Shown: positions 7,759-47,201, counted from the first letter of the stretch. The stretch: DNA of 64,000 nt from Candidatus Micrarchaeia archaeon (GCA_038880755.1 JAVZRC010000001.1:8791-72790), one strand, 5' to 3'. The notes: generated from the sequence alone by a model not told the origin. Made by a program: numbers and translations.

Positions 7759-7773
7759 TTTGAAACCTTTAAG

Positions 7774-7884: not shown

Positions 7885-7994
7885 TTATTATCTAGATATG
7901 AAATACTGTAGAATAGCAGAATTAATATTATATTATAAAATATATAATTCTTTCTGTAACACCTAAAATTAGAGTAAATATAGAGGCTAGAATA

Positions 7995-8438: not shown

Positions 8439-8457
8439 TTTATCACCATTTAAAATA

Positions 8458-18004: not shown

Positions 18005-18811
18005 TTATATAAGAGAAACGCCAGCCAATATATAAATAATCAGGCCGATTAATATGAATGGAAGAAACATAGGCATATCCAGGACAGGCCATTTCCTTCC
18101 TGTTTTGCTTAGCATCTTTGCCTGCTTCTCGTCACTTAGTCTTTTTATTTTGTATCTTTCTATAATTTTTTTGTCCAACATTTCTATTGCAATTACATCT
18201 TCAGGTTCTATCTTTTTCTTCATGACTACCATTTCTTGCATCAGCTGTTCTTTTGAAATTATAAAGAATATAGATTCAAAGAAAAGTATTCCTGAAACCA
18301 AAAGCAACCAAGCAGGCAGGAATGGGAATAACATAAACATATAAATTAATAGAGCAAATGAAAATAAGAGCAATATGATCTGGAGTGCTTGCCACAGATT
18401 TATTTTCATCTTTCCTTCATTAAATCTCTTGATAATTCTTGGGAAGTATTTTATCATAATCCATATGGAAGCAAGCACAGTAGCAATTGCAAGAACCATC
18501 AATGAAGAAGGAACGAATTGATTTTCATCCAGTGGAAATGCAGGCAATGCAGAATATATGGCTGCCAATACTATAACATCTGCACCACCAATCTGTCCAT
18601 TAAGATATAATATATAAAGCACAAGTACCAAGGGAATTGCAATCGGAAGGAATTTTAAAAACAACGAATAATCAAATATATTCAAAAGTAATGAAATTCC
18701 AAGGAATGAGTAAAGAAATAGCTCAGGTACATTCTTTTTATTGAAAATATCATAATAAGCAGCAATTCCAGTTCCTGCCAATGCAATCAATATTCTAATA
18801 ATCTCTATCAT
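18005..18811 (-). CDS. A24-family prepilin/preflagellin peptidase (PibD/FlaK-like)
   Basis: The two catalytic Asp contexts AAYYDIFNKK (TM1) and IGGADVIVLAAI, plus a multi-TM C-terminal extension. Confidence 0.65.
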   Translation of the reverse strand: MIEIIRILIALAGTGIAAYYDIFNKKNVPELFLYSFLGISLLLNIFDYSLFLKFLPIAIPLVLVLYILYLNGQIGGADVIVLAAIYSALPAFPLDENQFVPSSLMVLAIATVLASIWIMIKYFPRIIKRFNEGKMKINLWQALQIILLLFSFALLIYMFMLFPFLPAWLLLVSGILFFESIFFIISKEQLMQEMVVMKKKIEPEDVIAIEMLDKKIIERYKIKRLSDEKQAKMLSKTGRKWPVLDMPMFLPFILIGLIIYILAGVSLI

Positions 18812-24996: not shown

Positions 24997-25854
24997 TTAA
25001 GGAAATCCTCTTAATCCATTTAGTCTCTGCTCAAAAATTTTTACATTCGTATTAAGTAGTTTAATTTCCCATTCTAATTTTTCATTAATAGATTTTATTA
25101 TTTTCTTTTTCTCTTTATTCGTTAAATCAAAATAAGATGTTATCTTATCCTTATTTTTGCTAAAATTATCATTGAGATATACAAATAGATTATGTAGTTT
25201 TTTATATTCTTCTAACGTTTTGTAAAATTTTTCCTTTCTATCTTTAATTTTTAATGAGTCTTCATATCGAGCTTTCCGATAATCGTTGTTTATTTCTCCT
25301 TCGCCACTAAATGAATCTCCAGAATAAAGTTCAATTCTTAATATAACATTATCATGGTATAACTCTAATAAATTAACATTATAAGGATCGTCTTTTAGGA
25401 GTTCTTTTATTTCTTTATCACTTTCTGTTAATATCGATTCTTTTTCTTCAACATCATTAATTATTGTCAAAGCATCTGCTTTTTTCATTTTCAGTTTTTC
25501 TAAAACAAAAAACACAGCTTTATTTTTAGTCTCTTCATATATCCTTTCCAATTCAGCAATACTTTCATCAATCTCTACTATTATCTCTGCAGAATTCTTT
25601 ATAAATGAATTGCCATAACTATAGTAATAACTTTTTATTTTCTTTAAATCTTCTTTACTACACACATTCTCCAAGCTTTTTTCTATTTTTTCATAATTTG
25701 TAAATGGATAAATACTATAAAATGCATTTGCTTTGGTCGGTGTCATAGATAAACCTAAAGCCAAAATCCCTTCTGCTAATAGTTTTCCAATCCGTTTTTT
25801 GAAATCAAGCTTTTTTTCAGGTTTTATCTCCTTAATTTTCTTTTCATCAGACAC
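24997..25854 (-). CDS. hypothetical N-terminally anchored/secreted protein
   Basis: Basic N-terminus then hydrophobic LLAEGILALGLSM. Remainder is K/E/N-rich and helical. Confidence 0.4.
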   Translation of the reverse strand: MSDEKKIKEIKPEKKLDFKKRIGKLLAEGILALGLSMTPTKANAFYSIYPFTNYEKIEKSLENVCSKEDLKKIKSYYYSYGNSFIKNSAEIIVEIDESIAELERIYEETKNKAVFFVLEKLKMKKADALTIINDVEEKESILTESDKEIKELLKDDPYNVNLLELYHDNVILRIELYSGDSFSGEGEINNDYRKARYEDSLKIKDRKEKFYKTLEEYKKLHNLFVYLNDNFSKNKDKITSYFDLTNKEKKKIIKSINEKLEWEIKLLNTNVKIFEQRLNGLRGFP

Positions 25855-25929: not shown

Positions 25930-28900
25930 TTATTTATTTTTGACTCCAATCTCAGTAACTTTGCCTTTTGATACTCCACTATAAAAAGCTTCAATCCACT
26001 CTCTTTTTTCTTCTTCCATGTTCTTCTCATATTCTTTTTTGCCGGAATAAATGTAGATTATAGTTCCAGTTCCAAAAATCTTATTTTCGTTGAGTTTTTT
26101 CTTTAATACTTCTGGCTTAATTCCATCTTCACTAAAGTGTTTATATTCAATTTCGTCTATTAAACTTACGAATGGGTTATATCTGTTAGTTTGTATGTGT
26201 TTCTTTATCTCTTCTTCTGTTCTCTCTTTACCTGCTGCTATATTTGTATTCACATTATTAAGATGATTTAGGAGTTCATTGTACTTAGTTCTTTCTTCAT
26301 GCGAATGTACTTCTTTAGATTTATAGGAAGTTTCTAGCTTTCGTATTTCTTCGTGAATCTGGTTACTTAATGAATCTAATTTCCCAACTGTTGTAAATGT
26401 TTGATTATTGTCTTTGGGAATGTAGATTTCAGAATTGTATTTTTCGAAATCTTCTTTTACTTTACTTAAACCTTCCCGTAACTTGATTTCACTTTCATTT
26501 AATGTATATGGTGGTGATAAGAGTTGAAGTGCTTTATTTAGCTCTTTTTGTGCTTCATCAAGCTTGTAACGAGTGTATCCATTTCCGGAATTTATACTAC
26601 TGGTGGTTTCTGCAGCAGATTTTATTTCTGCAGCCTCAAATGTTTTTTTCATTATCATTGCGGAATCTACAGTTAAAGAACTTACAGGAGATAATGAAGG
26701 AGCATTTTTAGCAACTTCATATATCTCTTTCATTAATATCAGATTATCTCTTTCTTTTCTAATGAATTCTGTTCCTTTTATTACTCTTTCTAATTCAATT
26801 TTTGCAGACTCAATCTGGTTTTCTTTAGATTTAACTTCGTCATAACCTGGGGTACCAATTGTTGGATTTCTATATTTTATATAGAGTTCCTCTAGTTCTT
26901 TTTGAAGGTTTTTTATTTTGTTATTTATTATTTCTTCACCCTTTAAAACAGTAAATAATACTGTTTCTGGTGTAACATCTGTTTTCTCTCCATTAACTAT
27001 CTTTACGGCTCTTTCTAATCCTTTTGAGTTAAGTTTCTTTTCAAGATCTAATGTATCTATTATGTTTTTAGTGAGTTTCTCTTTATTCTCTGGCAATTCA
27101 TAATTCATATTAGAAAATGCAATTATTTTTTCATTTGGATTCGTTATCTTTCTTCCTTTTTCATCAGTCAACTCTAATTGGTCTAAAAATCTATGGATAG
27201 TTCCTATCTGTATGTCTTTTATAATATAATTAAATGCAGCTATTTTATTAGAATCGTCTTTAATTAATTCTAGGTTTTCTTTTAGAACAGTATTAATCTT
27301 ACTTGGATCACCACTTTCATATGCTTCATAAATTCGTTGAACATTAATCCCATAAGCATCAGCCAATTCTTTCACGTCTCTCAATTTGGACTTAAATTCA
27401 TCAACTCCATAGTTACTATAGTAGTCTTTCGCATTCATTTTTCTTGCTATTATCAAAGATTCTTTGTCAAAACCTATTAATGCTCCATTGCTACTAATTC
27501 TATTAAGTAGTCTTTCAGTATCTTCTCTAAGAATCCTTTCTAAGTTTCTTATTAATTTATTTGTATCTTCTACACTTAAATCAGATTTTTGTTTTATAAG
27601 TCTAGATTTTTGTTCATCACTTAGGTAAACAGATTTTAGTTGTTCATTGATTCTTTGAATTCTACCATCTAGATACGTTCTAATATCTTGTAATTCTGTA
27701 GGTTTTGCTCCTTTCTTTAACCCCTCTATTACATTTCTTAACATTTCTAAATTTGCAACTTCATCTTTAGCGATCGCATTCAATATTTTCATCTTTCCCT
27801 TCTCAGTCAATCCATACACATCTATATCTTCTTTTTGTAAACTAAAACCATATGTTGCTTTCACTTTATTATTTATCTCTTCTTGTTCTTCTTTGGTATA
27901 CATCTCTTTTGATGGTCTTCTGATCTCAGGTATTGAAGCATAAGATAAACTCCAAGGTCTTACACCCATTCTACCTAATGAGAGAAAGAACGTTTGTCTG
28001 AATAAATCTAATAATGATGAACTTGATACTTTATCTGATGCAGTAACAACTCTTATTTCACCAAAAACTCCTTTAACAACTCTTCTATTTCCACCCAATA
28101 CATCTTCCATTTCTTGTGTAGTTAGTTTTCCTTTTGCAGCTTGTTCCGCTTTCTTCAATTTTTCTAATTCTTCTTTATTCAATCTTCTGGAAGTAGTACT
28201 CATTAATACTTTTCCAGGTATAGAGGATATCTTTTGCACTATTCCAAAGGTTCCTTTTGCCTTTTTTTCTTCTTCAATTGAGGGAGTGAGGAACTTTCCA
28301 AGTTTGTATGCACCGGTTGAAGTAGCAGATTTTAATGCACTCTGGGCTGCACCTACAGCAGTACCTAATAATGTAGTTCTTTGCCTTGTAGTGACTCTAC
28401 CTCCAGAGATTCCTGGTGCTTTAAATGCAACTCTTGAAAAGTCAAATAAACCAAACGGATTCTTTCCAGATGCAAACATCGCAGCAACAAGAAGTGCAAA
28501 TATTATGAAAAGAGGAGCACAAGCAGTCAAACTTATTAACGGAAATACTCCAGGTACATATCTTTCTGTTTTCGCACTTCCCATAAATGGTTCTTTCGGT
28601 TTCGGTGTAAATGTAGCGGTTATTGAATATGAGATCTTTCTAGGATCTGTCGAATTTTCTAATAAGGGTGGTTGAGTGTATAGTGTAAAAGAAACACTCC
28701 CGTTTTCATTTGTATTTACTACAAAAGGTGCTGATTCATCTGAAAGGACAAACTCACCTGCTGCATTTTTTGTTACAAATTTACTTCCTATTACTAATTC
28801 TATAGTTATATTTTTGTTTGCAAGAGGTATTCTATTTTGTGTTTTCCTATCAATTGCATTAAGCTGTATATTGACATCAATTGTATTATCAGTTATACCT

Positions 28901-29046
28901 ACAGGTATATTTATTGGATGCCTTGAATGCTGAATTATAATTTCAGTTGGATTTTTATCTACAGGACAGATATTAACTGTGAAAACTAGAGGGATTGCAA
29001 AGAGGACAAGTATGATAATTAATCCAGTTACTTTCATTTGTATCAA
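25930..29046 (-). CDS. large (1038 aa) bitopic coiled-coil protein, signal peptide plus internal TM
   Basis: Signal peptide LIIILVLFAIPLVFTV, about 150-aa N-terminal domain, TM LISLTACAPLFIIFALLVAAMF, then about 850 aa of heptad-rich coiled coil. Confidence 0.6.
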   Translation of the reverse strand: MIQMKVTGLIIILVLFAIPLVFTVNICPVDKNPTEIIIQHSRHPINIPVGITDNTIDVNIQLNAIDRKTQNRIPLANKNITIELVIGSKFVTKNAAGEFVLSDESAPFVVNTNENGSVSFTLYTQPPLLENSTDPRKISYSITATFTPKPKEPFMGSAKTERYVPGVFPLISLTACAPLFIIFALLVAAMFASGKNPFGLFDFSRVAFKAPGISGGRVTTRQRTTLLGTAVGAAQSALKSATSTGAYKLGKFLTPSIEEEKKAKGTFGIVQKISSIPGKVLMSTTSRRLNKEELEKLKKAEQAAKGKLTTQEMEDVLGGNRRVVKGVFGEIRVVTASDKVSSSSLLDLFRQTFFLSLGRMGVRPWSLSYASIPEIRRPSKEMYTKEEQEEINNKVKATYGFSLQKEDIDVYGLTEKGKMKILNAIAKDEVANLEMLRNVIEGLKKGAKPTELQDIRTYLDGRIQRINEQLKSVYLSDEQKSRLIKQKSDLSVEDTNKLIRNLERILREDTERLLNRISSNGALIGFDKESLIIARKMNAKDYYSNYGVDEFKSKLRDVKELADAYGINVQRIYEAYESGDPSKINTVLKENLELIKDDSNKIAAFNYIIKDIQIGTIHRFLDQLELTDEKGRKITNPNEKIIAFSNMNYELPENKEKLTKNIIDTLDLEKKLNSKGLERAVKIVNGEKTDVTPETVLFTVLKGEEIINNKIKNLQKELEELYIKYRNPTIGTPGYDEVKSKENQIESAKIELERVIKGTEFIRKERDNLILMKEIYEVAKNAPSLSPVSSLTVDSAMIMKKTFEAAEIKSAAETTSSINSGNGYTRYKLDEAQKELNKALQLLSPPYTLNESEIKLREGLSKVKEDFEKYNSEIYIPKDNNQTFTTVGKLDSLSNQIHEEIRKLETSYKSKEVHSHEERTKYNELLNHLNNVNTNIAAGKERTEEEIKKHIQTNRYNPFVSLIDEIEYKHFSEDGIKPEVLKKKLNENKIFGTGTIIYIYSGKKEYEKNMEEEKREWIEAFYSGVSKGKVTEIGVKNK

Positions 29047-29094: not shown

Positions 29095-30723
29095 ATGAAG
29101 AAATCTAATAAAATAGATATAAAATTTAATTATTCATTATTCATTCTGTTTAGCTTAATTATTTTTGCTTACGCCCAAACGCAGACACAAAGCCAACAGA
29201 CATGGCAGCAGTATGTTCCTAATTGGTTTCCTTTGTTTGCAATTGCAATTGGAATAGGATTTGGAATAACTGGACTTGCATTCATGTTAGCAAGAACCTT
29301 TCAACTTACACAGATGGAAACATGGGCCAGAGCAGAATTGTTTGAGGTAACTGGAAGTGCATTCTTAGTTTTAATAATACTAATAACATTGGGAGTAATT
29401 GACAATCTATTCATTGCGGCTGTAGGAATGAAGCCAACAGATCTTTCACTTGATTTCACAAATAGGATTTCAGAAAGATTGATGGATAGGTATATTGATT
29501 CGGTTAAGCTAGGTGCAGCAGTAGGTATGCTTTCAGGTCCACCAGTCCAATATTTAGGAGCAACATCTTCCACATCAGACAAAAGCGGTCAGACAAATCA
29601 AGGAAGCGGAACTGAAGTTACAGGAGGTAATGATGGTAAACCAGTGCAGTCTCCAGAGACACCAAATAGAATCTGGATGGTAGCCATTAAATCTTTTAAA
29701 ATGAGTTACCTAACATTTTATGCTGCAGATGTTTTTAATGGTCATTTTAACTTAGTTCAATCTATAGCTTTAACTTCTTTAGGAGTTTCTATCTTTTCCC
29801 ATATCTTATTGAATTTTATAAATAGTATTGCAATTCCATTTTTAATTCCATTTGGATTGTTTTTGAGCATATTTGCATTCACAAGGAAAATGGGAAGAAC
29901 CATAATTGCGTTTGGGGTGGGGCTCTACCTTTTTGTTCCGCTTTCCATAATAATTGCTCAAACAATGTATGATTCTGCATTTAAGCCGAATTCTTCCATC
30001 CCAGCGATAAGTAGACCTTCAGGAAATTCAAATATAGATCGTTTTACAACAGAGGTTTTTGCTTATGAAGCTTTAGATCTGCTTTCGCAATTAGCAATTG
30101 CCCAATATGCAATTTTAACCAATGCAGATACCTCACTACTGCCAAGTTGTGTAACCGGAGCAATTTCCCTTTCTTCAATATGTGGGATAGCTGCTCCAGC
30201 TTGTGCTCCAGTATTTACAATGATATGTTCTATGCTTGGTGGCATGTCTGACGTGGGAAGCGGGTCAGATAATATAAATACAATACAAAACGTTTTTTCT
30301 GTTTTGAGAGTTGCTTCTTTAAGTACGATTCTTGATGTACCAATCCCTGAACAATTAGGTTCAGCAAGTGCAACTATTGTAAGTCTAGCTGTAGCAGGTG
30401 GTGCATCCACATTTATATTCCATTTAATTCCATCAAATGTGATAACTATAAATTACATTATGCCAGTTCTGCAGCAATTAATGAACTTTGGGCAGTACGA
30501 AGTATCAGTTTTGACAGCTTCTCTATATGCAAACATGAATCAATACCTAGCAATCAAGTTAACAAACATCACGCTTGCATACACTCCATATGTAATGCAA
30601 GATGCAGTTCCTGCATTGCTTATTCCATTTATAATCATATTTACAGTTATAACTGGCATAAGGTCAATTTCTCCAGCTATTGGAGGGGAAGTTCAAATAC
30701 TGGGAGTTTCGGAACTTATATGA
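29095..30723 (+). CDS. paralogue 1 of 6: polytopic membrane protein of novel family (C-terminal GGEVQILGVSELI)
   Basis: Signal peptide, TM1-(ETWARAELFE)-TM2 hairpin, conserved helix FTRKMGRTIIAFGVGLYLFVPL and conserved C-terminal tail. Confidence 0.65.
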   Translation: MKKSNKIDIKFNYSLFILFSLIIFAYAQTQTQSQQTWQQYVPNWFPLFAIAIGIGFGITGLAFMLARTFQLTQMETWARAELFEVTGSAFLVLIILITLGVIDNLFIAAVGMKPTDLSLDFTNRISERLMDRYIDSVKLGAAVGMLSGPPVQYLGATSSTSDKSGQTNQGSGTEVTGGNDGKPVQSPETPNRIWMVAIKSFKMSYLTFYAADVFNGHFNLVQSIALTSLGVSIFSHILLNFINSIAIPFLIPFGLFLSIFAFTRKMGRTIIAFGVGLYLFVPLSIIIAQTMYDSAFKPNSSIPAISRPSGNSNIDRFTTEVFAYEALDLLSQLAIAQYAILTNADTSLLPSCVTGAISLSSICGIAAPACAPVFTMICSMLGGMSDVGSGSDNINTIQNVFSVLRVASLSTILDVPIPEQLGSASATIVSLAVAGGASTFIFHLIPSNVITINYIMPVLQQLMNFGQYEVSVLTASLYANMNQYLAIKLTNITLAYTPYVMQDAVPALLIPFIIIFTVITGIRSISPAIGGEVQILGVSELI

Positions 30724-30746
30724 AATAATACAAGGAGTGTTAGACC

Positions 30747-31619
30747 ATGGGATTTAGCGATATACCGACATGTTTAAGTACATGCACATTATCATCAGAG
30801 TATTCAAACTGGCTTCCTTTAGCTGGTATGATAATATTCATAGTTCTGCTTGGAATATCTATAGGCTTTATGATATCTAGATTTCTAAATAGACGCGACT
30901 GGGAGGCAATGATAAGATTAGAATTATACCATCTGTCAGTTGCAGTTATTTGGATCGGATTAATCGCAATAGTTGCCAATATTACATGTTCATTGTCATG
31001 TTCAATAACTAAAGATGAGAGTCCATTCACATCTTCAATTAATTACCTTAACACAATTAATTCAAAATTAAGCAGTATTGTAAATTCCTTGTATGAGAAA
31101 GCAAAGAATATAAGGATAGAAACAGCATATTATGACGCATTTGCCAATTTCATGTATTCGCCAAAGGCAGGATGTGATAATGTTGCATCAGTATATGAGA
31201 ATTTTTCATTCATGTTATCTCCATTCGTGGCCAGTCTTTTGATTCAGCAGTATGCTTTAATTTTTATAAGCCAGATAGCATTTACTTATCTACTTCCTAT
31301 TGGAATAATTCTTCGCTTGATTCCAGGATTTAAAGACGCATCTTCATATGTTATTGCTATCGCATTTGCATTTTATATCATCTTGCCTTTAACCTATGTT
31401 TTCGCGCAAAAGGCAACGGAAGGAATTTCGCTATCTTTGATTGATACAGATGCAAGTGATTGTGTATCTGCTAATGAAATTCAAACTATATTAACTGATG
31501 TTGGATTGCTTTTGCCACAGGCAGTATTCTTCCCTGCTTTAAGTAGCATTATTACAATTGGAGCAGCAAGAGCGCTTGCAGAGATATTTAAGTATGATTT
31601 CATTGAACTAAGGGGATAA
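30747..31619 (+). CDS. paralogue 2 of 6: polytopic membrane protein of novel family
   Basis: TM1-(RRDWEAMIRLEL)-TM2 hairpin. Motif LPIGIILRLIPGFKDASSYVIAIAFAFYIILPL. Confidence 0.6.
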   Translation: MGFSDIPTCLSTCTLSSEYSNWLPLAGMIIFIVLLGISIGFMISRFLNRRDWEAMIRLELYHLSVAVIWIGLIAIVANITCSLSCSITKDESPFTSSINYLNTINSKLSSIVNSLYEKAKNIRIETAYYDAFANFMYSPKAGCDNVASVYENFSFMLSPFVASLLIQQYALIFISQIAFTYLLPIGIILRLIPGFKDASSYVIAIAFAFYIILPLTYVFAQKATEGISLSLIDTDASDCVSANEIQTILTDVGLLLPQAVFFPALSSIITIGAARALAEIFKYDFIELRG

Positions 31620-31620
31620 A

Positions 31621-32808
31621 TTGGTATTAGACAAAATAAATAATAAAGTTAAAGGATACACTGTAAAGATAGCTATGGTAGTGTTTGTTCTAATTTTATG
31701 TATCTCATTTTCATTTGCAGCTCAAGATGTTTTCGGTTTCCATACAGATGTTGATTGGATTCTAATTGCATATTTAGTTATACTTATTGTTGCACTACTA
31801 TTGGGAATCGCATTTATGATATCTAAAGTATTTGCAATGCATGAGTTAGAGGCATGGACAAGAGAAGAGGCAATGAATCTTATTATATCAATTGCAATTC
31901 TCGTTTTATTTACTGCATTTGTTGGTGTAGCTGAACAAATAGCAAATTCTTTATCTAAAGACGTTCTTTCTTCAAGTGTTTCTGCAAGTGCTTCAGGAAA
32001 CATAAGTTACTGGCAATACATACCAAATGAGGGCAGGTGGAAAACGATAGAAACTTCCAACCCATCCTGTGAATATCCATGTTACATATATATGGCAAGA
32101 GGCTTCCTAGGTTCTTTGTATGAAAAATATGGAGAATCTTTAAAGAGTATTGCCCAATATTATTTCGTTTCAGTGTTCTATTCCACTCAATCTATAGGGT
32201 CTGGCGTTGACTTTACCTGGGGCAAATTTAAATTTGAATTTGGAATTGGATTCCCGTTGAATGCAGGTTTAACTATATATAACAATATACTAGCAACTGT
32301 AGTAAGCGAGTATTTGAAAATAATTACAGCTATAAAAATGCAGGAAATTGCTTTAGTTTATCTTTCATCTCTTGCAGGCATGTTCTTCATACTTGGAATA
32401 ATCTCCCGTTCAGTTTGGTTTTTAAGAAAATTCGGCGGTCTGTTTGTAGCTGCAGGCATAGGTTTATATTTAATATTTCCAATGGTTTATGTTTTAAGTT
32501 GGTACACGATTGACAGATCTGCAATAATATTTGAAGTGGATCTTCCACAACCAGTATCTTCCGATGATCCACTTTCATTCTTTACTGGCGGGATTGGAGG
32601 TTTAGGAAATGTTGATTTGTTATTTACAAGATATAATGATAATGGATCTGTAATTTCAATTGGAATGTTAGATTCGTTAGGAAGATCATATATTCCAATA
32701 ATAGTAGTGCCAATCCTTGCAATTTTTACCACTCTTGGATTTATAAGGCATTTCTCACCAATGATAGGTGGAGATCCTGAAATAGCAGGTCTTACAAGAA
32801 TCATTTAA
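31621..32808 (+). CDS. paralogue 3 of 6: polytopic membrane protein of novel family (C-terminal IGGDPEIAGLTRII)
   Basis: Motif ISRSVWFLRKFGGLFVAAGIGLYLIFPMVYVL. The track start is a TTG. An ATG at 31675 gives a clean signal peptide. Confidence 0.6.
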   Translation: MVLDKINNKVKGYTVKIAMVVFVLILCISFSFAAQDVFGFHTDVDWILIAYLVILIVALLLGIAFMISKVFAMHELEAWTREEAMNLIISIAILVLFTAFVGVAEQIANSLSKDVLSSSVSASASGNISYWQYIPNEGRWKTIETSNPSCEYPCYIYMARGFLGSLYEKYGESLKSIAQYYFVSVFYSTQSIGSGVDFTWGKFKFEFGIGFPLNAGLTIYNNILATVVSEYLKIITAIKMQEIALVYLSSLAGMFFILGIISRSVWFLRKFGGLFVAAGIGLYLIFPMVYVLSWYTIDRSAIIFEVDLPQPVSSDDPLSFFTGGIGGLGNVDLLFTRYNDNGSVISIGMLDSLGRSYIPIIVVPILAIFTTLGFIRHFSPMIGGDPEIAGLTRII

Positions 32809-32822
32809 GCATATGAAAGTAA

Positions 32823-33971
32823 GTGGATATCATGATATTTAGTGTAAGTGAGTATATGAAAAATAATGAAACAAAGAAGAAAAACGCAAGTTCAATATTA
32901 GATCTATTTTCAAGAAGCTTAATCATGTTTTTCATATTAATTTCAATATCCTTTGCTGCAACAGAATGCGGTTACTTTGGAACATATCTTTACAACAATG
33001 TATGTGTTCCTGACTTATTAGTCAATTTGAGTACGATATTAATTTTAATTGGAATCATTATAGGCTCAATATTTTATGGACTGGGCATTGCATTAGAGCA
33101 TACAAGAATTAAAGAATGGTCTAAAGACTTCCTTTATCAACTACTTGGTACAGCAGTAATTCTTTCTGTTTATCTAGGTCTTGTAGCTTCTTTAAACAGT
33201 TTCGCACCTGCAATTTATAATTCAAATCTTGCATATCCTGCTGAAAGCACTGTTCGTTCACTTTCAGATACTAAATGGATAAATGTCCAGTCACATTCTG
33301 AAAAATATGTGGGCTGTCTTTTAAGTTACACTAAAGATGCAACATTGGAAATAGTAAGAGTATCCTCTTCATTGTCCTCTTTAGCGTCCATCTCTATTCA
33401 ATTAATTTCTGGTTCATTCAGCAACTTTTATCCATTATTTCCAACTGGAGGAGGTCTCACTTCTATAATGTCAGTTCTAATAGGAGCACTTGCAGCAACC
33501 ATTATCCAGCTTAAGCTTCAATTTGAAATACTAAAGCTAAATTCTGCATTGTTTAGTATTGTGCTTCCACTTGGATTGATATTGAGATCATTTCCATATA
33601 CTAGAGGGGCAGGAGCAGCGATGATAGCAATAACATTTGGATTTACAATTTTTCTGCCTATATTTTATTTGATCATAGAGGACATAGGTTATCATTTTTA
33701 CCAAAAAGATGTATGTTCAATACATCCGCCATCAATAGGATTTTTCCAGATGGTAGATATGGGAATAAAAATTGCGCAAAAGGGAGCGGTTTCAACTCTT
33801 CAAAAATATTTTGGAGTCGGGGGCGATTTTGAAAGTCTGACAACAGTTTTATTAATACAGGCTACCATTCTTCCATTTGTAGCTTATTTAGTAGTTCTTA
33901 ATATAATTAAGAGGCTTGCAGAGGTGCTAGGTGGAGAGATAGACTTCAGCACATTGGTGAGATTGATATGA
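32823..33971 (+). CDS. paralogue 4 of 6: polytopic membrane protein of novel family (C-terminal LGGEIDFSTLVRLI)
   Basis: Motif LPLGLILRSFPYTRGAGAAMIAITFGFTIFLPIFYL. The start may instead be the ATG at 32856. Confidence 0.65.
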   Translation: MDIMIFSVSEYMKNNETKKKNASSILDLFSRSLIMFFILISISFAATECGYFGTYLYNNVCVPDLLVNLSTILILIGIIIGSIFYGLGIALEHTRIKEWSKDFLYQLLGTAVILSVYLGLVASLNSFAPAIYNSNLAYPAESTVRSLSDTKWINVQSHSEKYVGCLLSYTKDATLEIVRVSSSLSSLASISIQLISGSFSNFYPLFPTGGGLTSIMSVLIGALAATIIQLKLQFEILKLNSALFSIVLPLGLILRSFPYTRGAGAAMIAITFGFTIFLPIFYLIIEDIGYHFYQKDVCSIHPPSIGFFQMVDMGIKIAQKGAVSTLQKYFGVGGDFESLTTVLLIQATILPFVAYLVVLNIIKRLAEVLGGEIDFSTLVRLI

Positions 33972-35104
33972 AAAAGGGATTCAAACATATATTGTATTTA
34001 GCTTTGCTGCTTCTCATTATTCTACTTAATCCTGTGCATGCTCAAACAAATACTAACCAAGATAATGTGCCGAATGGTTGTGAAGTTGCATTGCTTTTGG
34101 ATTTTGGAAATCAAAGCAACAGTGCTATAGGTGTAGAGCAGAATTGGAAATCTTTGTCCTTTATTGGATTATTGGTTTCTTTATTTCTGTTAATTTTTGC
34201 GTATTTAATAGGTAAATCTTTAGATTCCCCACAACTTATAGCTAGAGCTAAGACAGATATGATTCAGGTAGTTGTGACTGCAATAATGCTTGGAGTTCTT
34301 TATTCAATATTGCTCTTTATTTGTAGCATTGATGCATCTCAATTTGGATTTAATTTTACTTCATTTTTTGATGGAGCAAGAATGTATCTTGAATACTCAA
34401 GAGCATCGGCGCTTAACGCTTACCTTAAATGTACAAATGCAATGATGATCATAACTGGATTGTCTACATTCAATATAAACAATCCAAACTTTATAGATTT
34501 GGGTGCATTTCTACATATAGGGGTTTACTTTAAACCTTTTGCAGGTTATGGAATTACAATAGGCGCTCTTAACTGGTTCTCCAGTCTGGTACAACTTTCA
34601 TATTCATTAATTACGGGATATATTGTGGTTCTAGATGCAATTCAGCTGTATTTCCTTAATCTACTTCTTCCAGCAGGAGTAGTATTGAGATGTTTTTCGC
34701 CAACAAGAGATTTAGGCGGTGTGCTAATTGCAATAAGTGTAGGCTTATTCTTTTTCTATCCATTACTGTTTTCATTTTCATATATGATTATTGGTCAGCC
34801 AGATCCAAATGTAAGATTGCCAGATATGGATTGGGAAAGTGAGATAAATAGTGCTGTAGCTAAATCTGTAGCACTATCATCAGTTCCTTTAGGCAGTCTT
34901 GTAACTATCTTCAATTCATTGTTCGGCAAAGGCGGAGAAGCAATAGATAGACTGAACGAGGCATATATTGCGACAGGCAGTGTGATTTTATATGTTTTTA
35001 TATTACCTGCAATTAATTGGATTATCTTAGTAGCGATCATCAGAGAATTAAGCAAGGCATTAGGCCAGGAAGTAGATATATCTGGTTTGGCAAGAATGAT
35101 CTGA
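33968..35104 (+). CDS. paralogue 5 of 6: polytopic membrane protein of novel family (C-terminal LGQEVDISGLARMI)
   Basis: Motif LLPAGVVLRCFSPTRDLGGVLIAISVGLFFFYPL. A 4-bp ATGA overlap with paralogue 4 suggests translational coupling. Confidence 0.65.
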   Translation: MKKGFKHILYLALLLLIILLNPVHAQTNTNQDNVPNGCEVALLLDFGNQSNSAIGVEQNWKSLSFIGLLVSLFLLIFAYLIGKSLDSPQLIARAKTDMIQVVVTAIMLGVLYSILLFICSIDASQFGFNFTSFFDGARMYLEYSRASALNAYLKCTNAMMIITGLSTFNINNPNFIDLGAFLHIGVYFKPFAGYGITIGALNWFSSLVQLSYSLITGYIVVLDAIQLYFLNLLLPAGVVLRCFSPTRDLGGVLIAISVGLFFFYPLLFSFSYMIIGQPDPNVRLPDMDWESEINSAVAKSVALSSVPLGSLVTIFNSLFGKGGEAIDRLNEAYIATGSVILYVFILPAINWIILVAIIRELSKALGQEVDISGLARMI

Positions 35105-35118
35105 GATACGGTGAAATT

Positions 35119-36366
35119 ATGTTTGTAAATCCGCAAAAAAGTAAAATAAAATCAATTCACTCATTATTTCTACAGATAATACTATTTTTACTTATTTTAA
35201 ATCAGGTGAGTGCACTTTCATGCAGCATTACAGATCAAAATTGCCCAAGCGGACAGATATGTGATAAGGGAGAATGCAGGGAATGTCTCACAAGTGCAGA
35301 ATGCTGGAGCAAAACTCTAATTAGATCTACTCCAATTGGAGGAATCTCACCTTGGGTTAGCATATCTATCATAGTTTTGCTTATATCGCTTTTAGGTGTT
35401 GCAATATTTTATATGGTAGCTTATGCATTCCAATCTGATCAGTACAAGAGAATCGCATTTGCTGAATTAATGCAGGTGTTAGCTTCATTTCTGTTGGTTG
35501 CATTTCTATTTGGATTTGAAATATTTGAAACAGATATGCTTACAAGATTAGAAAATACTTCAGGAGCAATCACAGCTGCATTAGTTCTTCAATCTCAAGG
35601 TACCTCACCCACTGCTGCACTTTCTGGAGATGTACAGATCAATCCATTTGATGTTTCATATGCATTTCTTAGGAATATGATAAATTGCGTTCAAAACAAA
35701 TTAAAAACAACATATGAGAACTCAAAAGCAATACAAACAATAATTAATTTGAATATAGATGTACAAGTGATTACACCTGGAAAGGTGAAATTTTCAGTTC
35801 CAAACCCTCTTGCATTCACATCTCTATCAGAAACTGCAGCAAAGTATGAATTCCAAGCAAATGAACTTACTTGGCTTATGATATTTCTTTACGCCCAGAT
35901 AGCAGTTCTGAAATTTATAGAAACATCGATGTTCACGGTCTTTTTGCCAATAGGGTTAATACTTAGAGCATTTCCACCTACTAGAGGGGCAGGAGCTGTG
36001 CTGGTTGCGATAGCAATAGGATTTTATCTTATCTATCCTTTGACATTCACTTTATTATATACTGGAACACCTAAGCAGATAGAAGGATGCAATCTTCAAG
36101 TTGCATTTGATTACTCTCAATTGGAAAAGACATGCCCATTAAACATTGGTGCGACCACTCAGATACTTTCTTCTGCATCTGATCTTGCTGCAACATTAGA
36201 TGCAGCTGTACCTCAATTACAAGCAGGGACATCTTCTATTAGATTCACCACATTCTTGTATATGCTTATTTCATTAGGTGTCACATTTATATTTGTCCGT
36301 TCATTGTCAAGCATATTAGGTGCAGACATTTCAGAGATAGGAAGAACAATGTTAAGATTATTATAA
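35119..36366 (+). CDS. paralogue 6 of 6: polytopic membrane protein of novel family with N-terminal Cys-rich EGF-like module
   Basis: Motif LPIGLILRAFPPTRGAGAVLVAIAIGFYLIYPL. N-terminal CSITDQNCPSGQICDKGECRECLTSAEC. Start set to the ATG at 35119, because the track start overlaps paralogue 5. Confidence 0.65.
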   Translation: MFVNPQKSKIKSIHSLFLQIILFLLILNQVSALSCSITDQNCPSGQICDKGECRECLTSAECWSKTLIRSTPIGGISPWVSISIIVLLISLLGVAIFYMVAYAFQSDQYKRIAFAELMQVLASFLLVAFLFGFEIFETDMLTRLENTSGAITAALVLQSQGTSPTAALSGDVQINPFDVSYAFLRNMINCVQNKLKTTYENSKAIQTIINLNIDVQVITPGKVKFSVPNPLAFTSLSETAAKYEFQANELTWLMIFLYAQIAVLKFIETSMFTVFLPIGLILRAFPPTRGAGAVLVAIAIGFYLIYPLTFTLLYTGTPKQIEGCNLQVAFDYSQLEKTCPLNIGATTQILSSASDLAATLDAAVPQLQAGTSSIRFTTFLYMLISLGVTFIFVRSLSSILGADISEIGRTMLRLL

Positions 36367-36388: not shown

Positions 36389-37165
36389 ATGAATAAGAAA
36401 AAGAAATTCGAATCTGACGTTTCATCAGTTCAAAACAATGCTAAAAAAGATTTCATTAAGCAGTTTACTTTTTATTTTGCAATTATATTTGGACTAATGA
36501 TAATAGCCTACGTTCTTGCAATTCTTCCCTCTTTGTTGGCAAAAAATTCTCCAAAAGTTGGACAAACAGAATTGTCTGCAGAAGACTATTCTTGCAATTC
36601 AAGCGTCACAAAAGATTCCATTGAGTACAATATTAAATATCTAATTATAAAAAACGGAACGCAAATTGGAACTCTAGAATATAATTTTTCTAAAACTGAT
36701 TCTGGATTCATTAAAAAAGAAATAGGCATGATAGATTTCACAAAGTTAGAAGATTATTCTCAAGCTATTAAAAATTCAAACATTTCACTTTTATCATCTG
36801 CTATTACAATAATAGAGACTATTTATGATTCAGATTATAATTGTAAAAACTCTTCCTATATATTGATTTTAGGAAACTCAACTTATAATTATTCTGGAGA
36901 GTGCAGCCCCCCAGACATTCCTTTCAAAATATGCAAGCAAAATATGAAAGAACTATTAAATGAAAAGATAGAGGCAGGAGCGTTTACATTCAATACAATA
37001 AAATATGAATATACACACTCACAAACTATCGAAGGTCTAAAAGAAACGCAAATTTTATATCTTTGGTTTTCAGATCTTCCATTCCCAATAAAAGTAGGTG
37101 ATTCAGAGTTTTATTTGATCCTTTCAAACTATTCAAAAAACAATATCAGCCATGAAAATAAATAG
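36389..37165 (+). CDS. hypothetical single-pass membrane protein with Cys pairs, part of the surface cluster
   Basis: TM FTFYFAIIFGLMIIAYVLAILPSLL, then a soluble Cys-containing domain. Confidence 0.45.
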   Translation: MNKKKKFESDVSSVQNNAKKDFIKQFTFYFAIIFGLMIIAYVLAILPSLLAKNSPKVGQTELSAEDYSCNSSVTKDSIEYNIKYLIIKNGTQIGTLEYNFSKTDSGFIKKEIGMIDFTKLEDYSQAIKNSNISLLSSAITIIETIYDSDYNCKNSSYILILGNSTYNYSGECSPPDIPFKICKQNMKELLNEKIEAGAFTFNTIKYEYTHSQTIEGLKETQILYLWFSDLPFPIKVGDSEFYLILSNYSKNNISHENK

Positions 37166-37250: not shown

Positions 37251-40200
37251 ATGAATAAATCTGAAATGAAGAAAGAAAGTAAAATCAAGTCTTCATCTTT
37301 TTCAAATATGATGGTTTTTCTGATCATCTTTTCTTTGATATTTATTCTTGTCTCTGGTTGTATTGAATTAAAGCCAAGAGAAGGGATAAGTACTACAGTT
37401 CCAATTACGGTAACGAAAGGAAGCGATGTATGTGCCGGTTATAATGAATCCACATGCGGCGCTTTCTTGAAGGAAAAGAGAACTGCAATTTCTGATTATA
37501 TTTGTAAAGGACCAATCGGCCCTTCTTATTCAAAGGTGGACGAAGTAACTTATTCTCTTTCAGCTGAAAAAGGTTGGAGTTGTGAGGAAACAAAAACATA
37601 TCTAGTTTTAGCAGGAAATAACTATACAATGTCAGGTTCAGGCCATATGGGGAATCCACATGGTGGTAGCATAACATTACAAGATTCAAGAAATGTAGTA
37701 TCACCAATATCTTATGGAATGAATAATCTAACTTTGAAATGTGATGTAGGCGTATTTGTTAGTGTTTCAAAAGGTAAATATCAGGGGGGTTCATTTACCT
37801 TGAGATTTGATGGTTCATCTGACATCTTATCTCCAGGAGACCGTTTTGACGGACAATACTCATTTTTCGTACTACCATTAACTTTAACTCCAGAAAATAA
37901 CAAATTAATTGGTAATCTTAGTTTTTCAGGTACGTGGGTAGTTACCGGAAAAGAATACGGTAGTTGGCCAAACAAAAAACACAAATCAAGCATGGATGTT
38001 TCTTACTCTATTTCTTGTACTCCCTTTGCAAGCTACAATGTTAATTGGAGATGTAAAAATGCATATACCTCAGAATCATATGATTTTGTAAATTGCAGCT
38101 ATGATGAATTTTCTACATTCCAGGGTGGAAGGACATTCCTTGATAACAATACTCCATTCAGCAAGCTTAGCAACTATATTCAATCATATTATGGAACTTA
38201 CTCGTACAATCCAATTACTGAAGAAACAAAGCCAGCTGGAAAAATTCAAGTTCCATTCTTTATGTTAGGCCAAGGTCCATCCTTCCAGGATTATGAAGAG
38301 GCAAAGAAACTATGTGTACCATGGAAAGAAACCGTAGTGAACATCTCACTTGGAAATACGACATTTGATCCTCCATTTATGACAATCCTCTCAGGTTTAG
38401 AGCTCTGTATCGATAATAAAGACAATAAGAGACATGATATAACGATAATCAATCTTCAGGATCAAAGTATAGTAAGACAATACATTCTTCAGCCAACGCA
38501 ATCTGCATGTTATATACCATACGAAGGCTTTTATCACATAAAAGATTCAAATGGAGACTATGCTTATTTATCAGTACTAAGCGCAAAAGATACTACTCAG
38601 ATTTATATAGGAAATAACATAGTTCCGAATTATACAGTGGTTAATGCAGATGGATTTGTTAATTTTAGCCTAATTGAAAGAAAAGAGCATAACTTGAGTA
38701 TGACAAGTGTGAATAGATTTGATGATTATAGCTATGATAATAATTTTACTCTCAATCTTTCAAATCCGGTTGAAACAATAAGAGCGCCACAAACAGGAGA
38801 GTATAGGATTAATGATATCACAACAGATAAAACTGGTTATTTATTCGTTCAGTCTCCGCTTCAGAGATTCTTGTTTAAGAGAGATGGAACAATTGATCCA
38901 GGATATGAAATATACAGACCGCTTGGAGATTTGATTTGTTTTAGAAGCGAAACTGAAGGTTTAAGCATTTCAATTTCAAGATACACAGAAACTGAAAATG
39001 GATATGAATGGATATGGCTGACTAATGAAACATTGTCTACAAATTCATATTGCTGTATTCAAGGTGCGTTACCTGGCAAGTATCAAGGAATTACCTCAGA
39101 TGGAAGAGTTGCAAATTGGACGATAGGAAATGGAAAGCCTTCCGCAACAGTTTCTATTCAGCCGATTGGTTTTGAACCTGAAGAAGTAGAAAGTCCGCCA
39201 GGAACAAAGATATGTTGGATTAATCCATCAGCAATCTCAAGAAATGTTATAACAAAATCATCATCAGGAAAGACATTCTTCTCAGGCCAAATTCCACCAT
39301 TCTCAGATAATGTTTGTTGGCCAACTATGAACAAGACAGATTCATATGTAACTACATTTGTACCTAATTTAGATGTGAGGAACATTGTGAATATTAAAGA
39401 GGTTGATTCAAGAAACATCCAAATACTCTCAGGTGGCGCAGGCTTTGATACTATCTCATTAGTTGTAAAGCCTGGCTCTCAAATATGTTGGATTAATAAT
39501 GATAATAAGAATCATACATTAAAAGATGAGAGTGGAAACTACATACTCTTAGCTCCATCGCAAACAAACTGTATAGATAAGTCTACTATGCAGGAAGGAA
39601 ATATTTATACGCGCCAGCTGGATGGAAAGGAGATTTATTCAGATGTTGGAGTTATAGATGGTAAAGGTGCAATCCTGTCTTCAAGAGGTCCTATTCCATT
39701 TTCACTATTTGTAAATCCACCAAATGTTAATATGACTCAATCAGGAGAATTGTATATCACCTCTCCTTCGTATTTCAAGATTATAAATAAACAGAGTGTT
39801 CCATCTGAGTTGTATGAGATTTCCTATATTACTTTATTAGCTAATTCAACTGGATTGGCAGATATAGTGAAAACCGAAAGTGAAACTATTATAATTAATT
39901 CTCCGGTTAAGAGCTATACAAAGCTATTGCTTTATGTGGAAAATACTGATGATAAAAACCACACTATAAGAGTGGAATCAAACGGAGATGAAATCAATAT
40001 TCTACCTAATTCATTTTATTTATTTGAAATTAGTCAAAGTACAGTATTAACTGATTTAACTGTTAAAGAAAATTTGACTAGAAGTGGAACTACAAATCAA
40101 ACTATAATAGATGCATTGTCACAGATCCCAATAAAGATATTGGGTCCTCCAGAGATAAAATTAAGTAAATCAGGTTCTAATGGAGATTCATTAACATTGT

Positions 40201-43200
40201 CTGCTCCTATTGAACCTTATACTTCAATACTTTATGAAAATAATACAAACAAGACAATTGTAATCACTTTTGCAGATACAAAGGAATTCATACTAGAGAA
40301 CCCATTGAACAATCAAACATTAGACCTTCCAACTCAGGTTATTCATGGAGATTTATCCTCTCAAATTCTTTATGATATGAGAAAGTATGCGGATGAGGGA
40401 GCAATGTCATTGCTTATTCCTTCATTCCATAATGTAACAGTAAAGATACATTCCTCTGTTTTCTCTCCATCTGAAGCATTAATACCTGCAGGAAGCACAA
40501 TTACATTTACTAATAAGGATGTAATAGACCATACAATTGATTTAATTAAAAATGAAAGCGATATCATCTCTTCAAGATCGTTTACCCTTCTACCATTACA
40601 ATCAAATTCAACTTCAGATACACCAAAGAATACAACATTCACGTTCTATGATCAGCTTTCCAATATGAAAGGAAACATTACAACAGTTGCTTATGATGCA
40701 AATATTGGAATAATATCAACACCGATTTATCCAGAATCTGGAATGGTTGCAGTTGGTGGACCTGTTAAATTCAATAACTATGATCCTGATTCAGATTATA
40801 AGATTGAGATTAAACTTACAGATGAACTAAACGCTGATTACACATATATCTTAAATCTTCCTAAATATACAAATGGGATTCCAGGAGTTGCAACATGGAT
40901 TCCAGATAAGGCTGGAAATGCCACTTATATAGTTAGAAATAATACAATTGTTGTTGGCACTGGTGAAATAGTTGTCAAGAATTCAATAATTAATATTTCT
41001 ATTAGAAATGGGGAGTTTGAAACAAAATCAATTGCGGTTGATCATGATAGCAAGGTGTGCTTTAATCCAGACTCACCAAGAAACATCTCAATTACTAATT
41101 TAGATACCGGTGAAAAGATAGCTGAAAGAACTATCTATCCATTAGGTGTTCAAGCAACAGATTCAGGTAGTGTTTGTAAAAGAATTTATAACTGTTCTGT
41201 AAAGCAACAGACTGGAGATTATGGATGCATAGGAATAGTGAATGAATCAGATCCTTCTACATATTGTTCTTATTATTTAATTAATCCATCAATAGCATGT
41301 AAATTAGATAATAATATTTCATGTGTTGTTAAAGACCAGTATTCAAATGATTTAGAGTGTACAACTGACTATTCAAAAGATACGCAACCCGCAGTGCCAG
41401 GCATTCAACCACAGTGTTTATTCCAAGCAAGATTAGATGGTGGTGCATGCAACGGTGGTTCAGTAATAAAGAATTCTTCCTTAGCTTCAATAATTAATTG
41501 CTCAGTTTCAACTACAGGTCTTCTCCAGTTTAACTATTTTTCAGGTAAGGAAAAGACAGATGTATCAAATTTATTATGTAACGTCCAAAAATCAGGTAAT
41601 ATTATAACATGTAGCCCAACAGGTTTATATCCAGATATAGGTTGTATTAATAATTCAATCAATGATCTATATTGCTATTATACACCTTCACCATTAACAT
41701 CCGCAGAAAAGTCTAATCCGTATACATTAACTGATAATCGTTTCTGTGCAGTAACAACTGCTCAAAGAACTGAAAGATATTATACAACATATGCATGTGA
41801 TATAGGGTACGATGGTAAGTGTACATGTCCAACTAATAAAATGTGTGGTGCCTTGCCATGTGATGGAAGCAATGTTCTTGCAAGTATGTATTATGATCGT
41901 TATCAAAGCAGTTCTATGTTTGGAAGGAAAAGTTATAATTGTTCGAATGGAAAGTTAGTTAATGTTCTCTTGAAAGAAGGGACATATACATTTAATTTCT
42001 CAGGATTAGATAATCCATATTTTTCAATATATCTTAAACCTAATTTTGGATTTAAGGCATGCAAATGCTATGCTGCCAACCAAAGGACAGTCACATACGC
42101 TAATTCGTGTAGTGTTAAAACTGGGGGAAGTTCAATCACTCCATTTCCAAGCAATTGTACTTTACAGTCTGAGAAATGTGTGTTCTCTTCTCCATCAGTA
42201 TTTTTATGCAGCAATGAAGAAAACTGTCCATGTAAATTCGGATGCGGAAAGAAGATCAACTATTCAACACTAGGAAACATAAATTGTGTTTCAACCCCAG
42301 GGGGTTGTAATGTAATATCAAATTATAATGCTGATAATGGTGATTACTGTAAATATGCGTATGCTCAAACATGCACACCTAAACAAGGATATGAAGATAA
42401 AGTATCATGCAAACTTGATGGAATATCATGTTTGATATCAGAAGGAAAGAAAATAAAAGACGACGGTTCGTATTGCAGTTTGAATTTATTTTCATGTGAA
42501 CCAGCTTACTCGGGCGTTGATTGCAGTTTTGATGCATCAACACAATCATGTAAGGTTGGTTCTATCGAGCAATTCTGTTTCACACCAGCTTCAACTTATG
42601 TTGTTGAGGATGTAGATACTGGAAATATTATGATAGTTGAAGGTTATGACAGATATACGCCATTAGAGATAGATATTCAAAAATCTGTGTTCACTCCTTC
42701 CTTTGTTGCATCATCTCCACTGAGCGAAGTATGTTTCCAAAGCCTCGATGGAAAAATGCACAGAGTTTCAGTTCCAGAGGCAGTAAAGAGTGATGGTTTT
42801 ATTGATGTTTATTCAGATAGGCAAACATGTCTTAATTTCCCATACAATACAGAGCCATGGACTGTAAGGTTGCAGGACAAGCCAGATGTTGCAGCAGGCA
42901 TTAAATCAATAAAGCAGGATATTGAAGTAGTTGTCAAGTCACAGATGTTTGATCCTTCTGATCTGGTTCTCAGACCTAATACATCTATTACATTTATTAA
43001 TACAGATGCAGAATCACATCAACTTAACAAAGCAATACCATCTACAAATTTTGTTAAACTTATTTTACAAAATAGCATTTTAACAAGCGATTCATTCTTT
43101 TACAATATATTAAAAACAGAGTGGATAGATACAATCGAATGTAAGAATGATTCAGACTGTCCAGAAGGTTCATTCTGCGATGTAGAAAAAAGATGCCACG

Positions 43201-47053: not shown

Positions 47054-47082
47054 TCAATCATCATTGTTTTTTTCAATAGAAT

Positions 47083-47201
47083 AAGAATGATAAAGTCAGC
47101 AGCAATGCATCTTCCCCTCCAACAGGAGAGTACCAATAACATCGTGAACCGGCTTAGCTTCCGAGTTCGGAATGGGATCGGGCGTTTCCCGGTTCCTATG
47201 G
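47083..47201 (-). rRNA. rrf: 5S ribosomal RNA (stand-alone)
   Basis: Reverse complement reads GUCAGCGGCCAUAGGAACCGGGAAACGCCCGAUCCCAUUCCGAACUCGGAAGCUAAGCCGGUUCACGAUGUU…GCUGCUGAC. This has the canonical 5S helix I pairing and the loop C 'CCGAAC' and 'GGAAGUUAAGC'-type motifs. Confidence 0.8.

Follow-up and report, generated by a model that had tools for sequence, protein, structure and literature searches.

A strict set of six paralogous membrane proteins in Micrarchaeota, a candidate platform of a type IV secretion-like apparatus

What does an archaeon build from six adjacent, diverged copies of one polytopic membrane protein? The question is raised by six genes, g1-g6 (together, the hexad), at positions 29095-36366 of a 64-kb stretch from a Candidatus Micrarchaeia archaeon (GCA_038880755.1 JAVZRC010000001.1:8791-72790; 64,000 nucleotides (nt), analyzed in full and called the window below). 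It touches on a wider problem: DPANN archaea depend on physical contact with a host cell, through machinery that is poorly understood. On balance, we read the hexad as the VirB6/CedA-type platform of an archaeal apparatus resembling a type IV secretion system (T4SS), expanded to a fixed six, which works like VirB6/CedA and probably descends from it.

Six paralogues and their family

As the original prediction held, the six paralogous genes are adjacent and lie on one strand:

g1 (hexad position 1), 29095-30723, + strand: 542 amino acids (aa); largest extracellular region; tail PAIGGEVQILGVSELI
g2 (hexad position 2), 30747-31619, + strand: 290 aa; minimal member; C-terminus FKYDFIELRG
g3 (hexad position 3), 31621-32808, + strand: 395 aa; tail GGDPEIAGLTRII
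g4 (hexad position 4), 32823-33971, + strand: 382 aa; tail GGEIDFSTLVRLI; hairpin LPLGLILRSFPYTRGAGAAMIAI
g5 (hexad position 5), 33968-35104, + strand: 378 aa; tail GQEVDISGLARMI; 4-nt overlap of its start with the g4 stop
g6 (hexad position 6), 35119-36366, + strand: 415 aa from its ATG; Cys-rich N-terminal knot; tail GADISEIGRTMLRLL

An alternative TTG start at 35017 would lengthen g6 to 449 aa. Because the intergenic gaps measure only -4 to 23 nt, the genes look like one operon, and this putative operon looks as if it runs on into g7 and a giant gene encoding 2,791 aa (both described below).

The six are genuine paralogues in which selection has kept a few motifs, and the old duplications first proposed for them are borne out by BLASTP and by profile. 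All 15 pairs match in BLASTP (E 1e-12 to 1e-4, about 20-37% identity); the matches are collinear, reach beyond the hydrophobic helices and in several cases span 150-370 residues. A family hidden Markov model (HMM) run on the open reading frames (ORFs) of the window recovers exactly g1-g6 (E 1e-40 to 1e-87) and no other ORF. Near-invariant positions—G251, R255, R261, G264, P279 and G370 in g4 numbering, with T260 also conserved—are polar or special residues (Arg, Gly, Pro, Thr), not generic hydrophobics. An alternative in which the genes are unrelated and the motif reflects hydrophobic composition can draw on the low pairwise identity of the paralogues and on nothing else; it is refuted by these BLASTP and HMM results together with an exhaustive profile search, in which 2,229 database clusters match at E <=1e-10; we give it practically no chance of being right.

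Aligned, the six proteins share one plan. The N-terminal half comprises a signal peptide, a short external Cys-containing segment, the first transmembrane helix (TM1), a loop with E-W-(A/S)-(K/R)-x-E, and TM2; the C-terminal half comprises a variable external region, a TM3-'LPxG(I/L)xLRxFxxTRxxG'-TM4 hairpin, a variable external loop, TM5 and a C-terminal tail. The conserved element had been described as a single helix: the motif is real and not compositional, and it forms a TM3-loop-TM4 hairpin, not one helix, with two near-invariant arginines in its short, predicted cytoplasmic loop. The g4 and g6 segments quoted for it translate as given, one codon off, and the 17-mer said to be shared at the DNA level, ACTAGAGGGGCAGGAGC, has exactly two occurrences, at 33600 (g4) and 35980 (g6), a result reached in 0/100 shuffles.

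Conservation is uneven along this plan. Information content is 2.84 bits in the cytoplasmic R..TR..G loop, 2.36 in TM4 and 2.27 in the C-tail, and reaches its minimum in the two external regions (0.95 and 0.57 bits). The tail, '...R.LS..LG(G/A)(D/E)x(D/E)Ixx(L)xR(L/I)(I/L)-COOH', is conserved in five of the six paralogues; in g2 it is absent, and a conserved 'FKYDFxELRG' end stands in its place. Likewise, the N-terminal hydrophobic segments of five resemble cleavable signal peptides, with predicted AxA-type sites, and g2 has none. The mature proteins are predicted to have five TM helices, with the N-terminus outside and the C-terminus inside.

The exhaustive profile search covered 1.84 billion cluster representatives and returned 2,994 proteins at E <=1e-3, the 2,229 above being those at <=1e-10; family size is counted here in 50%-identity clusters. 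It was this search that revealed the size of the family: word-indexed homologue searches gave mainly close orthologues of the first query, and a scan of genome contigs with a narrow family alignment found five close Micrarchaeia loci only. Every member that carries an organism name belongs to Micrarchaeota (Micrarchaeia, Micrarchaeaceae, Anstonellales). Most members are metagenome proteins without an organism name, so a restriction to Micrarchaeota is provisional.

No Pfam-A or NCBIfam model matches g1-g6 (chance-level sub-threshold scores only, E 0.01 or weaker), and the family profile has no match among PDB sequences. We found no paper describing the family or six-gene arrays, and papers on archaeal dark matter do not mention it. 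Identity with the 'novel secretion system' of arCOG01314/arCOG02884 (Makarova et al. 2015) was considered and rejected, the components being different. New here are the family, the strict hexad with its mostly conserved order, the tail motif and an ATPase-less module around a giant protein; already known are the T4SS-derived, Ced/Ted-like kind of system and the multiplication of VirB6 in Rickettsiales.

Copy number and order across lineages

Family members occur singly or in sixes. In fetched loci, the family HMM finds exactly six tandem members in the window, L001/L007, L003, L005, L006, L008 and L010, and likewise in L011/L012, L013, L014, L015 and L016. A metagenome census retrieved 80 loci with the position-6 alignment; among those uncut by contig ends, 13 have six members, 13 have one, and a single locus scored as two consists of a pilin-like ORF plus one family member. 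No uncut census locus has three, four or five. Arrays of five to seven copies had been anticipated in related genomes: fixed-number arrays do recur, and the only numbers seen are one and six.

The positions within the array are also kept. Orthologues correspond 1:1 by position at 41-75% identity, vs about 20-37% between paralogues; those of g1 share 41-61% and those of g2 66-67%, and g6 is the most conserved position between lineages. The best hit lies at the same array position in 408/540 cross-locus comparisons among ten loci, against a chance expectation of 1/6. The C-terminal tails are position-specific, kept between distant lineages, and alike in hexads with and without a linked ATPase gene:

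position 3 tail: GGD(P/V)EIAGL(T/S)R(I/L)I
position 6 tail: GADISEIG(R/Q)..(L/I)R(L/M)(L/I)
position 2 ending: F(K/Q)YDFxE(L/I), no tail; common to the window, L001, L003 and L010, not L015 or L016

With 1:1 orthologues by position and position-specific tails, these comparisons place the five duplications before the divergence of the sampled lineages, with all six products retained.

In other lineages, position 3 carries immunoglobulin (Ig)-like or F5/8-type-C domains and extends up to 1,494-1,672 aa. Individual positions, mainly position 3, have large insertions on the external side, with domains of the Big_13, Big_3_3 and F5/8 type C families, at L010 2433-7451, L013 10001-14485 (P0131) and L014 3147-9989. 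On one 76.9-kb contig, Ga0315289_10000313, there are two complete hexad modules (L032 and L042/L013), each with homologues of the giant protein and of the coiled-coil protein described below; the whole module is duplicated in that genome.

Pilin- and ATPase-linked loci and the relation to VirB6 and CedA

The archaeal Ced and Ted systems combine a polytopic VirB6/CedA/TedA subunit with a VirB2-like pilin and a VirB4-like ATPase (Beltran et al. 2023, PMC9905601). Single-copy loci of the present family have neighbors that resemble these. L094, on an archaeal chromosome with Dph2, NreA and PepQ, reads as follows:

L094 gene 1, 123 aa: two hydrophobic helices with a short charged loop between them; Pfam T4SS_pilin at E 2.5e-4, under cut-off
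L094 gene 2: the single family member
L094 gene 3, 235 aa: 2-TM protein matching CedB residues 4-187 at E 8.8e-4
L094 gene 4, 357 aa: AAA_10/DUF87/TrwB/TraG ATPase; TraC at 1.4e-12, with CedD, VirB4 and CedB matches
L094, two small genes further on: a second HerA/CedD-like ATPase

The order pilin-like protein, family member, VirB4-N-like 2-TM protein, ATPase is also present in the diverged L059, L073, L074 and L083, and is thus seen in at least five diverged lineages; in each of these single-copy loci, the member is linked to both a VirB4-type ATPase and a putative VirB2-type pilin. Because this order recurs, the family member holds the place of VirB6/CedA/TedA. The 2-TM protein has no match among PDB sequences. 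Separately, Micrarchaeaceae loci (L011 1-1689 / L012 1-1673) encode, some 7 kb upstream of their hexad, a 735-aa protein closely homologous (E 1e-105) to the second L094 ATPase, and single-copy systems may therefore also belong to Micrarchaeota.

Some hexads are linked to comparable genes. A type B module, defined as the hexad plus two paralogous 2-TM proteins and a 514-aa ATPase of the FtsK/HerA/VirB4 superfamily, is found in L016, L046, L049, L050, L084 and the P0150 locus. Its ATPase matches DUF87 (5.6e-14), AAA_10 and P-loop_TraG in Pfam; in NCBIfam the best matches are CedD (9e-19), CedB (1.3e-16), VirB4 families and HerA, all far under the family cut-offs; in PDB they are HerA (8e-11) and VirB4 (1e-6). 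The hexad loci L016, L046, L049 and L084 are counted with the single-copy loci as linked to such an ATPase and pilin; the pilin HMM has matches upstream of the L084 and L098 hexads. In L016, an IS605 OrfB/TnpB-like gene (7658-8860, - strand) immediately precedes the ATPase-linked hexad.

The family's own N-terminal hairpin resembles these pilin-like neighbors. Family HMM positions 5-108, covering signal peptide, TM1, loop and TM2, match the neighboring pilin-like proteins of L085 (E 4e-9) and L073 (6e-9), and more weakly the remaining ones. An N-terminal relation to the pilin is published for CedA/CedA1 and VirB6/VirB2 (Beltran et al. 2023, PMC9905601).

For one paralogue, structure prediction hints at a similar link. 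AlphaFold2 models of g4 (predicted local distance difference test (pLDDT) 79, predicted template modeling score (pTM) 0.72) and g6 (pLDDT 80.4, pTM 0.75) have five TM helices, three of them prolonged by ~50 residues outside the membrane into a long external helical bundle, and end in a short amphipathic C-terminal helix. Among 350,542 PDB chains searched with Foldseek, the g4 model ranks VirB6 of R388 (TrwI) first and second (8rt9_F: E 0.054, prob 0.97, TMq 0.29, TMt 0.36, 305 columns; 8rtd_L: E 0.14); no match reaches E 1e-3, and we regard the structural link as suggestive, not established. The g6 model matches generic alpha-hairpins only, including those of membrane-fusion proteins and pore toxins. 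The analogy to the VirB6 arrays of Rickettsiales, raised in the original prediction, stands as the best lead, given this top rank and the VirB6/CedA position of the single-copy members.

Several results weigh against such a relation or against a strict, ordered set of six. Aligned with hhalign, a 125-sequence family profile gives a probability of 0.2% against TrwI and 1.1% against a shallow, six-sequence VirB6 profile made from plasmid records, and the CedA, TrbL and VirB6 models of NCBIfam/Pfam (PF04610) yield no match at E up to 1; by sequence, membership in the VirB6 family is not demonstrable. The scores behind the pilin and CedB-N assignments are sub-threshold, and the pilin profile finds nothing significant in PDB (TrwL, E 0.48). 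L082 shows five members, with its 3' end only 327 nt from the contig end, and in L011 and L014, which have diverged furthest, the six positions are less clearly in order. Pfam scans, phmmer and the pilin HMM reveal no ATPase or pilin gene of this kind in the window or the 8 kb upstream: P-loop proteins of the window are SRP54, Cdc6 and eIF2-gamma only (Pfam, ORFs >=100 aa outside the array, a few small ones excepted), and the L016 ATPase as phmmer query recovers nothing there. The absence of VirB4/VirD4 that had been noted for the window thus stands, and with it the absence there of the VirB4-family ATPase belonging to a whole T4SS or Ced/Ted-like system.

On the reading we prefer, the simple form of the system would have one platform protein, its gene flanked by those for a VirB2-like two-helix pilin and a split VirB4/CedB-like ATPase. 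Within Micrarchaeota, this gene would have multiplied to six before the sampled lineages split and then been kept as a fixed, ordered set, an ancestral homo-oligomeric platform becoming a hetero-oligomer with one subunit per position, probably pseudo-hexameric. Such a conversion would account for a copy number of one or six, a mostly kept order and position-specific cytoplasmic tails, features that point to a defined multi-subunit membrane machine. FtsK/HerA/VirB4 ATPases are usually six-fold symmetric, and six subunits would match the symmetry of such a motor. The conserved cytoplasmic face—E-W-K-E loop, R..TR..G loop and position-specific C-tails—would dock a cytoplasmic partner or neighboring subunits; a stalk would be built from the long, variable helices outside the cell, with the fused Ig-like or F5/8-C domains facing outward.

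The window-type module, rival explanations and known systems

In the window, the hexad belongs to a type A module, defined as a coiled-coil protein (cc), the hexad, g7 and a giant protein:

cc protein, 25930-29046, - strand: 1,038 aa; divergent from g1, 48 nt apart
g7, 36389-37165, + strand: 258 aa; one N-terminal TM helix, then a Cys-containing extracellular domain; not a family member
giant surface protein, 37251-45626, + strand: 2,791 aa; Cys-rich; lipobox-like LVSGC after the signal sequence

This module is found in the window, L003, L005/6, L008 and L010. L001 has cc, hexad and g7 and ends before any giant gene could be seen; L013, L024, L027, L032 and L042 have cc or giant homologues, or both. 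The predicted layout of cc is a signal peptide, an extracellular beta-rich domain of ~150 aa, one TM helix and a cytoplasmic helical/coiled-coil region of ~830 aa; it has no Pfam, NCBIfam or PDB sequence match. Its homologues flank the hexad in L001, L003, L005/6, L008, L024, L027, L032, L042 and L069, and in L010 one follows the giant gene on the same strand. Next to cc, a 285-aa coiled-coil protein (24997-25854, - strand), with homologues in the same place in L001, L005 and L006, may be a further component of the module. Homologues of g7, which matches nothing in Pfam or NCBIfam, lie directly 3' of the hexad in L001, L003, L005/6, L008 and L024-L028.

The giant protein consists of repeated cupredoxin/Ig-like modules and Cys-rich EGF/Dickkopf-like repeats (Pfam: Copper-bind 5e-7, Cupredoxin_1 1.5e-6, DUF7107, Dickkopf_N). 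Its homologues are neighbors of hexads in L003, L005/6, L008, L010, L013 (two copies) and L024-L042, and those next to hexads of other lineages measure 2,800-3,200 aa. The S-layer (surface layer) protein of Micrarchaeum is a 101-kDa, PF05123-type protein, and an S-layer role for the giant protein was rejected.

The surrounding window is a segment of an archaeal chromosome, low in G+C (~33%), with genes for Cdc6, eIF2-gamma, S6e, Rpb4, Pus10, class I LysRS, SRP54, prefoldin and Hjc. It also holds an intron-containing transfer RNA gene (7774-7884, - strand), found by Rfam and not by ARAGORN, with a splicing endonuclease gene at 747-1268, and a stand-alone 5S ribosomal RNA (rRNA) gene (47094-47209, - strand) with no 16S/23S genes adjoining; a listed ORF at 47020-47475 overlaps the latter and is probably spurious. 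A full-length RelA/SpoT homologue with HD_4, RelA_SpoT, TGS and ACT domains is encoded at 54272-56230 (- strand); since long proteins of this kind are unusual in archaea, its presence in a DPANN archaeon may reflect acquisition from bacteria. At 18005-18811 (- strand) there is a weak match to Peptidase_A24, the prepilin/preflagellin peptidase family (E 8e-5, under cut-off), and in the window we saw neither a type IV pilus ATPase nor a platform gene. A stand-alone Cas4-like PD-(D/E)XK nuclease lies at 8458-9144 (- strand); the window ORFs scanned include no cas genes, a search that did not extend to CRISPR arrays.

What would the hexad do in this setting? Because the tails of the window's lineage are as conserved as those of ATPase-linked hexads, a cytoplasmic partner is probably retained; candidates are an ATPase whose gene lies elsewhere and the cytoplasmic region of cc. 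Since the hexad is co-inherited with the giant protein, g7 and cc, with no ATPase or pilin gene nearby, the probable role of the apparatus here is mounting or exporting the giant surface protein, or forming a structure for contact with the host cell. The co-inherited giant lipoprotein suggests that the machine's output in this lineage is a surface adhesin or contact structure.

Two other accounts have to be set against a VirB6/CedA-type platform expanded to six. The family could be a new membrane platform with no VirB6/CedA ancestry, incidentally paired in some lineages with an FtsK/HerA-type ATPase, that here exports, anchors or spaces the giant lipoprotein, whether as a dedicated secretion or anchoring complex or as an S-layer-spanning stalk. 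It would agree with the lack of profile similarity to VirB6 and of matches in curated family libraries, with a g6 model that finds only generic alpha-hairpins, and with a window-type module that ties the hexad to the giant protein, g7 and cc without ATPase or pilin. Under this account, however, the conserved order of pilin, member, VirB4-N-like protein and VirB4-like ATPase in single-copy loci, the likeness of the N-terminal hairpin to pilins, and the top rank of VirB6 among all chains searched would all three be coincidences, and we find it the less likely, while granting it a substantial chance.

The other account makes the six genes separate transporters or permeases, for instance for different host-derived nutrients, held together only through shared regulation. 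For a symbiont of reduced metabolism, polytopic membrane proteins with variable extracellular loops could serve this end. The copy number of transporter families is normally variable, however, and here the number is strictly one or six, with order and position-specific tails mostly kept over diverged lineages. Only five TM helices are present, with long extracellular helical extensions; members are linked to a pilin and a VirB4-like ATPase; and g1-g6 match no transporter or permease family in Pfam, NCBIfam or the PDB profile search. A known permease family and a compositional origin of the motif were the two outcomes named at the outset as counting against paralogy under selection; the HMM scans returned no such family, and the motif is not compositional. 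Separate transporters are thus very improbable.

The VirB6/CedA-type platform can also be cast in a bolder form, in which a VirB6-derived, obligate hetero-hexameric ring, its locus stripped of pilin and ATPase genes in lineages like the window's and rebuilt around a giant adhesin and a cytoplasmic coiled-coil protein, would be the membrane core of a structure for DPANN-host contact or a cytoplasmic bridge, and so of a T4SS-derived organelle with a new architecture. We hold this version to be speculative and rather unlikely. More generally, its ties to giant adhesin-like proteins, to a pilin and to a VirB4/CedB-like ATPase make the family a testable candidate for an envelope-spanning apparatus of Micrarchaeota. 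If the relation to VirB6 is true, archaeal T4SS-derived systems of the Ced/Ted type extend into DPANN; the hexad would be a second, independent multiplication of VirB6 in a reduced symbiont, after Rickettsiales; and it would exemplify evolution from homo- to hetero-oligomer in keeping with the motor ATPase's six-fold symmetry. If the family is unrelated to VirB6, it is the more novel.

Among known systems, the closest are VirB6/TrbL (TrwI of R388), CedA of Sulfolobales and TedA of Thermoproteales, polytopic inner-membrane proteins whose genes, like those of the family's single-copy form, accompany genes for a two-helix pilin and for a VirB4-type ATPase. The N-terminal hairpin of VirB6/CedA resembles the cognate pilin (PMC9905601), as in the present family. 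CedA and TedA have about seven TM helices (PMC9905601), unlike the five of the hexad family. VirB6 is the best Foldseek match for g4, a weak one, and neither it nor CedA or TedA has detectable sequence or profile similarity to the family. Each of these systems has one such gene, whereas the hexad comprises six fixed paralogues, and the neighbors in the window are a giant lipoprotein and a coiled-coil protein, with no VirB4 or pilin gene nearby. VirB6 of A. tumefaciens reportedly has five TM helices, N-out and C-in, with a large extracytoplasmic loop after TM2 (Jakubowski et al. 2004), the topology predicted for the hexad family. To our knowledge, the C-terminal tail motif has not been described for VirB6.

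A precedent comes from another DPANN group: the giant Ig-repeat 'SPEARE' proteins of nanohaloarchaea join a VirB4/TraG ATPase, a TM segment and a cytoplasmic coiled coil and are proposed to be a T4SS-like host-interaction system (PMC10266531), in passages that mention no VirB6-like array. The likeness lies in a DPANN lineage combining a giant Ig-repeat surface protein, a TM segment and a coiled coil with T4SS-type parts, the window having an Ig/cupredoxin giant, cc and the hexad. In SPEARE, a single polypeptide carries all of these elements, the ATPase among them, whereas the window has separate genes and no ATPase.

In Rickettsiales, rvhB6a-e are five tandem copies, often of 600-1,400 aa, recognizable as TrbL/VirB6 and encoded alongside a full VirB/D set. 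They share with the hexad the arrangement of diverged, same-strand platform copies in tandem, large and variable extracytoplasmic or extra domains, and an obligate host-associated organism with a reduced genome. The hexad differs in having six copies, unrecognizable by sequence, in an archaeon, with mostly kept order and position-specific tails. Mycobacterial Mce operons encode six paralogues, MceA-F, that form an envelope-spanning heterohexamer; these are single-pass MCE-domain proteins coupled to an ABC transporter. They are bacterial, of unrelated fold, and without sequence or structural similarity seen to the hexad family; what they share with it is a fixed set of six tandem paralogues, an analogy for six-ness that reflects stoichiometry.

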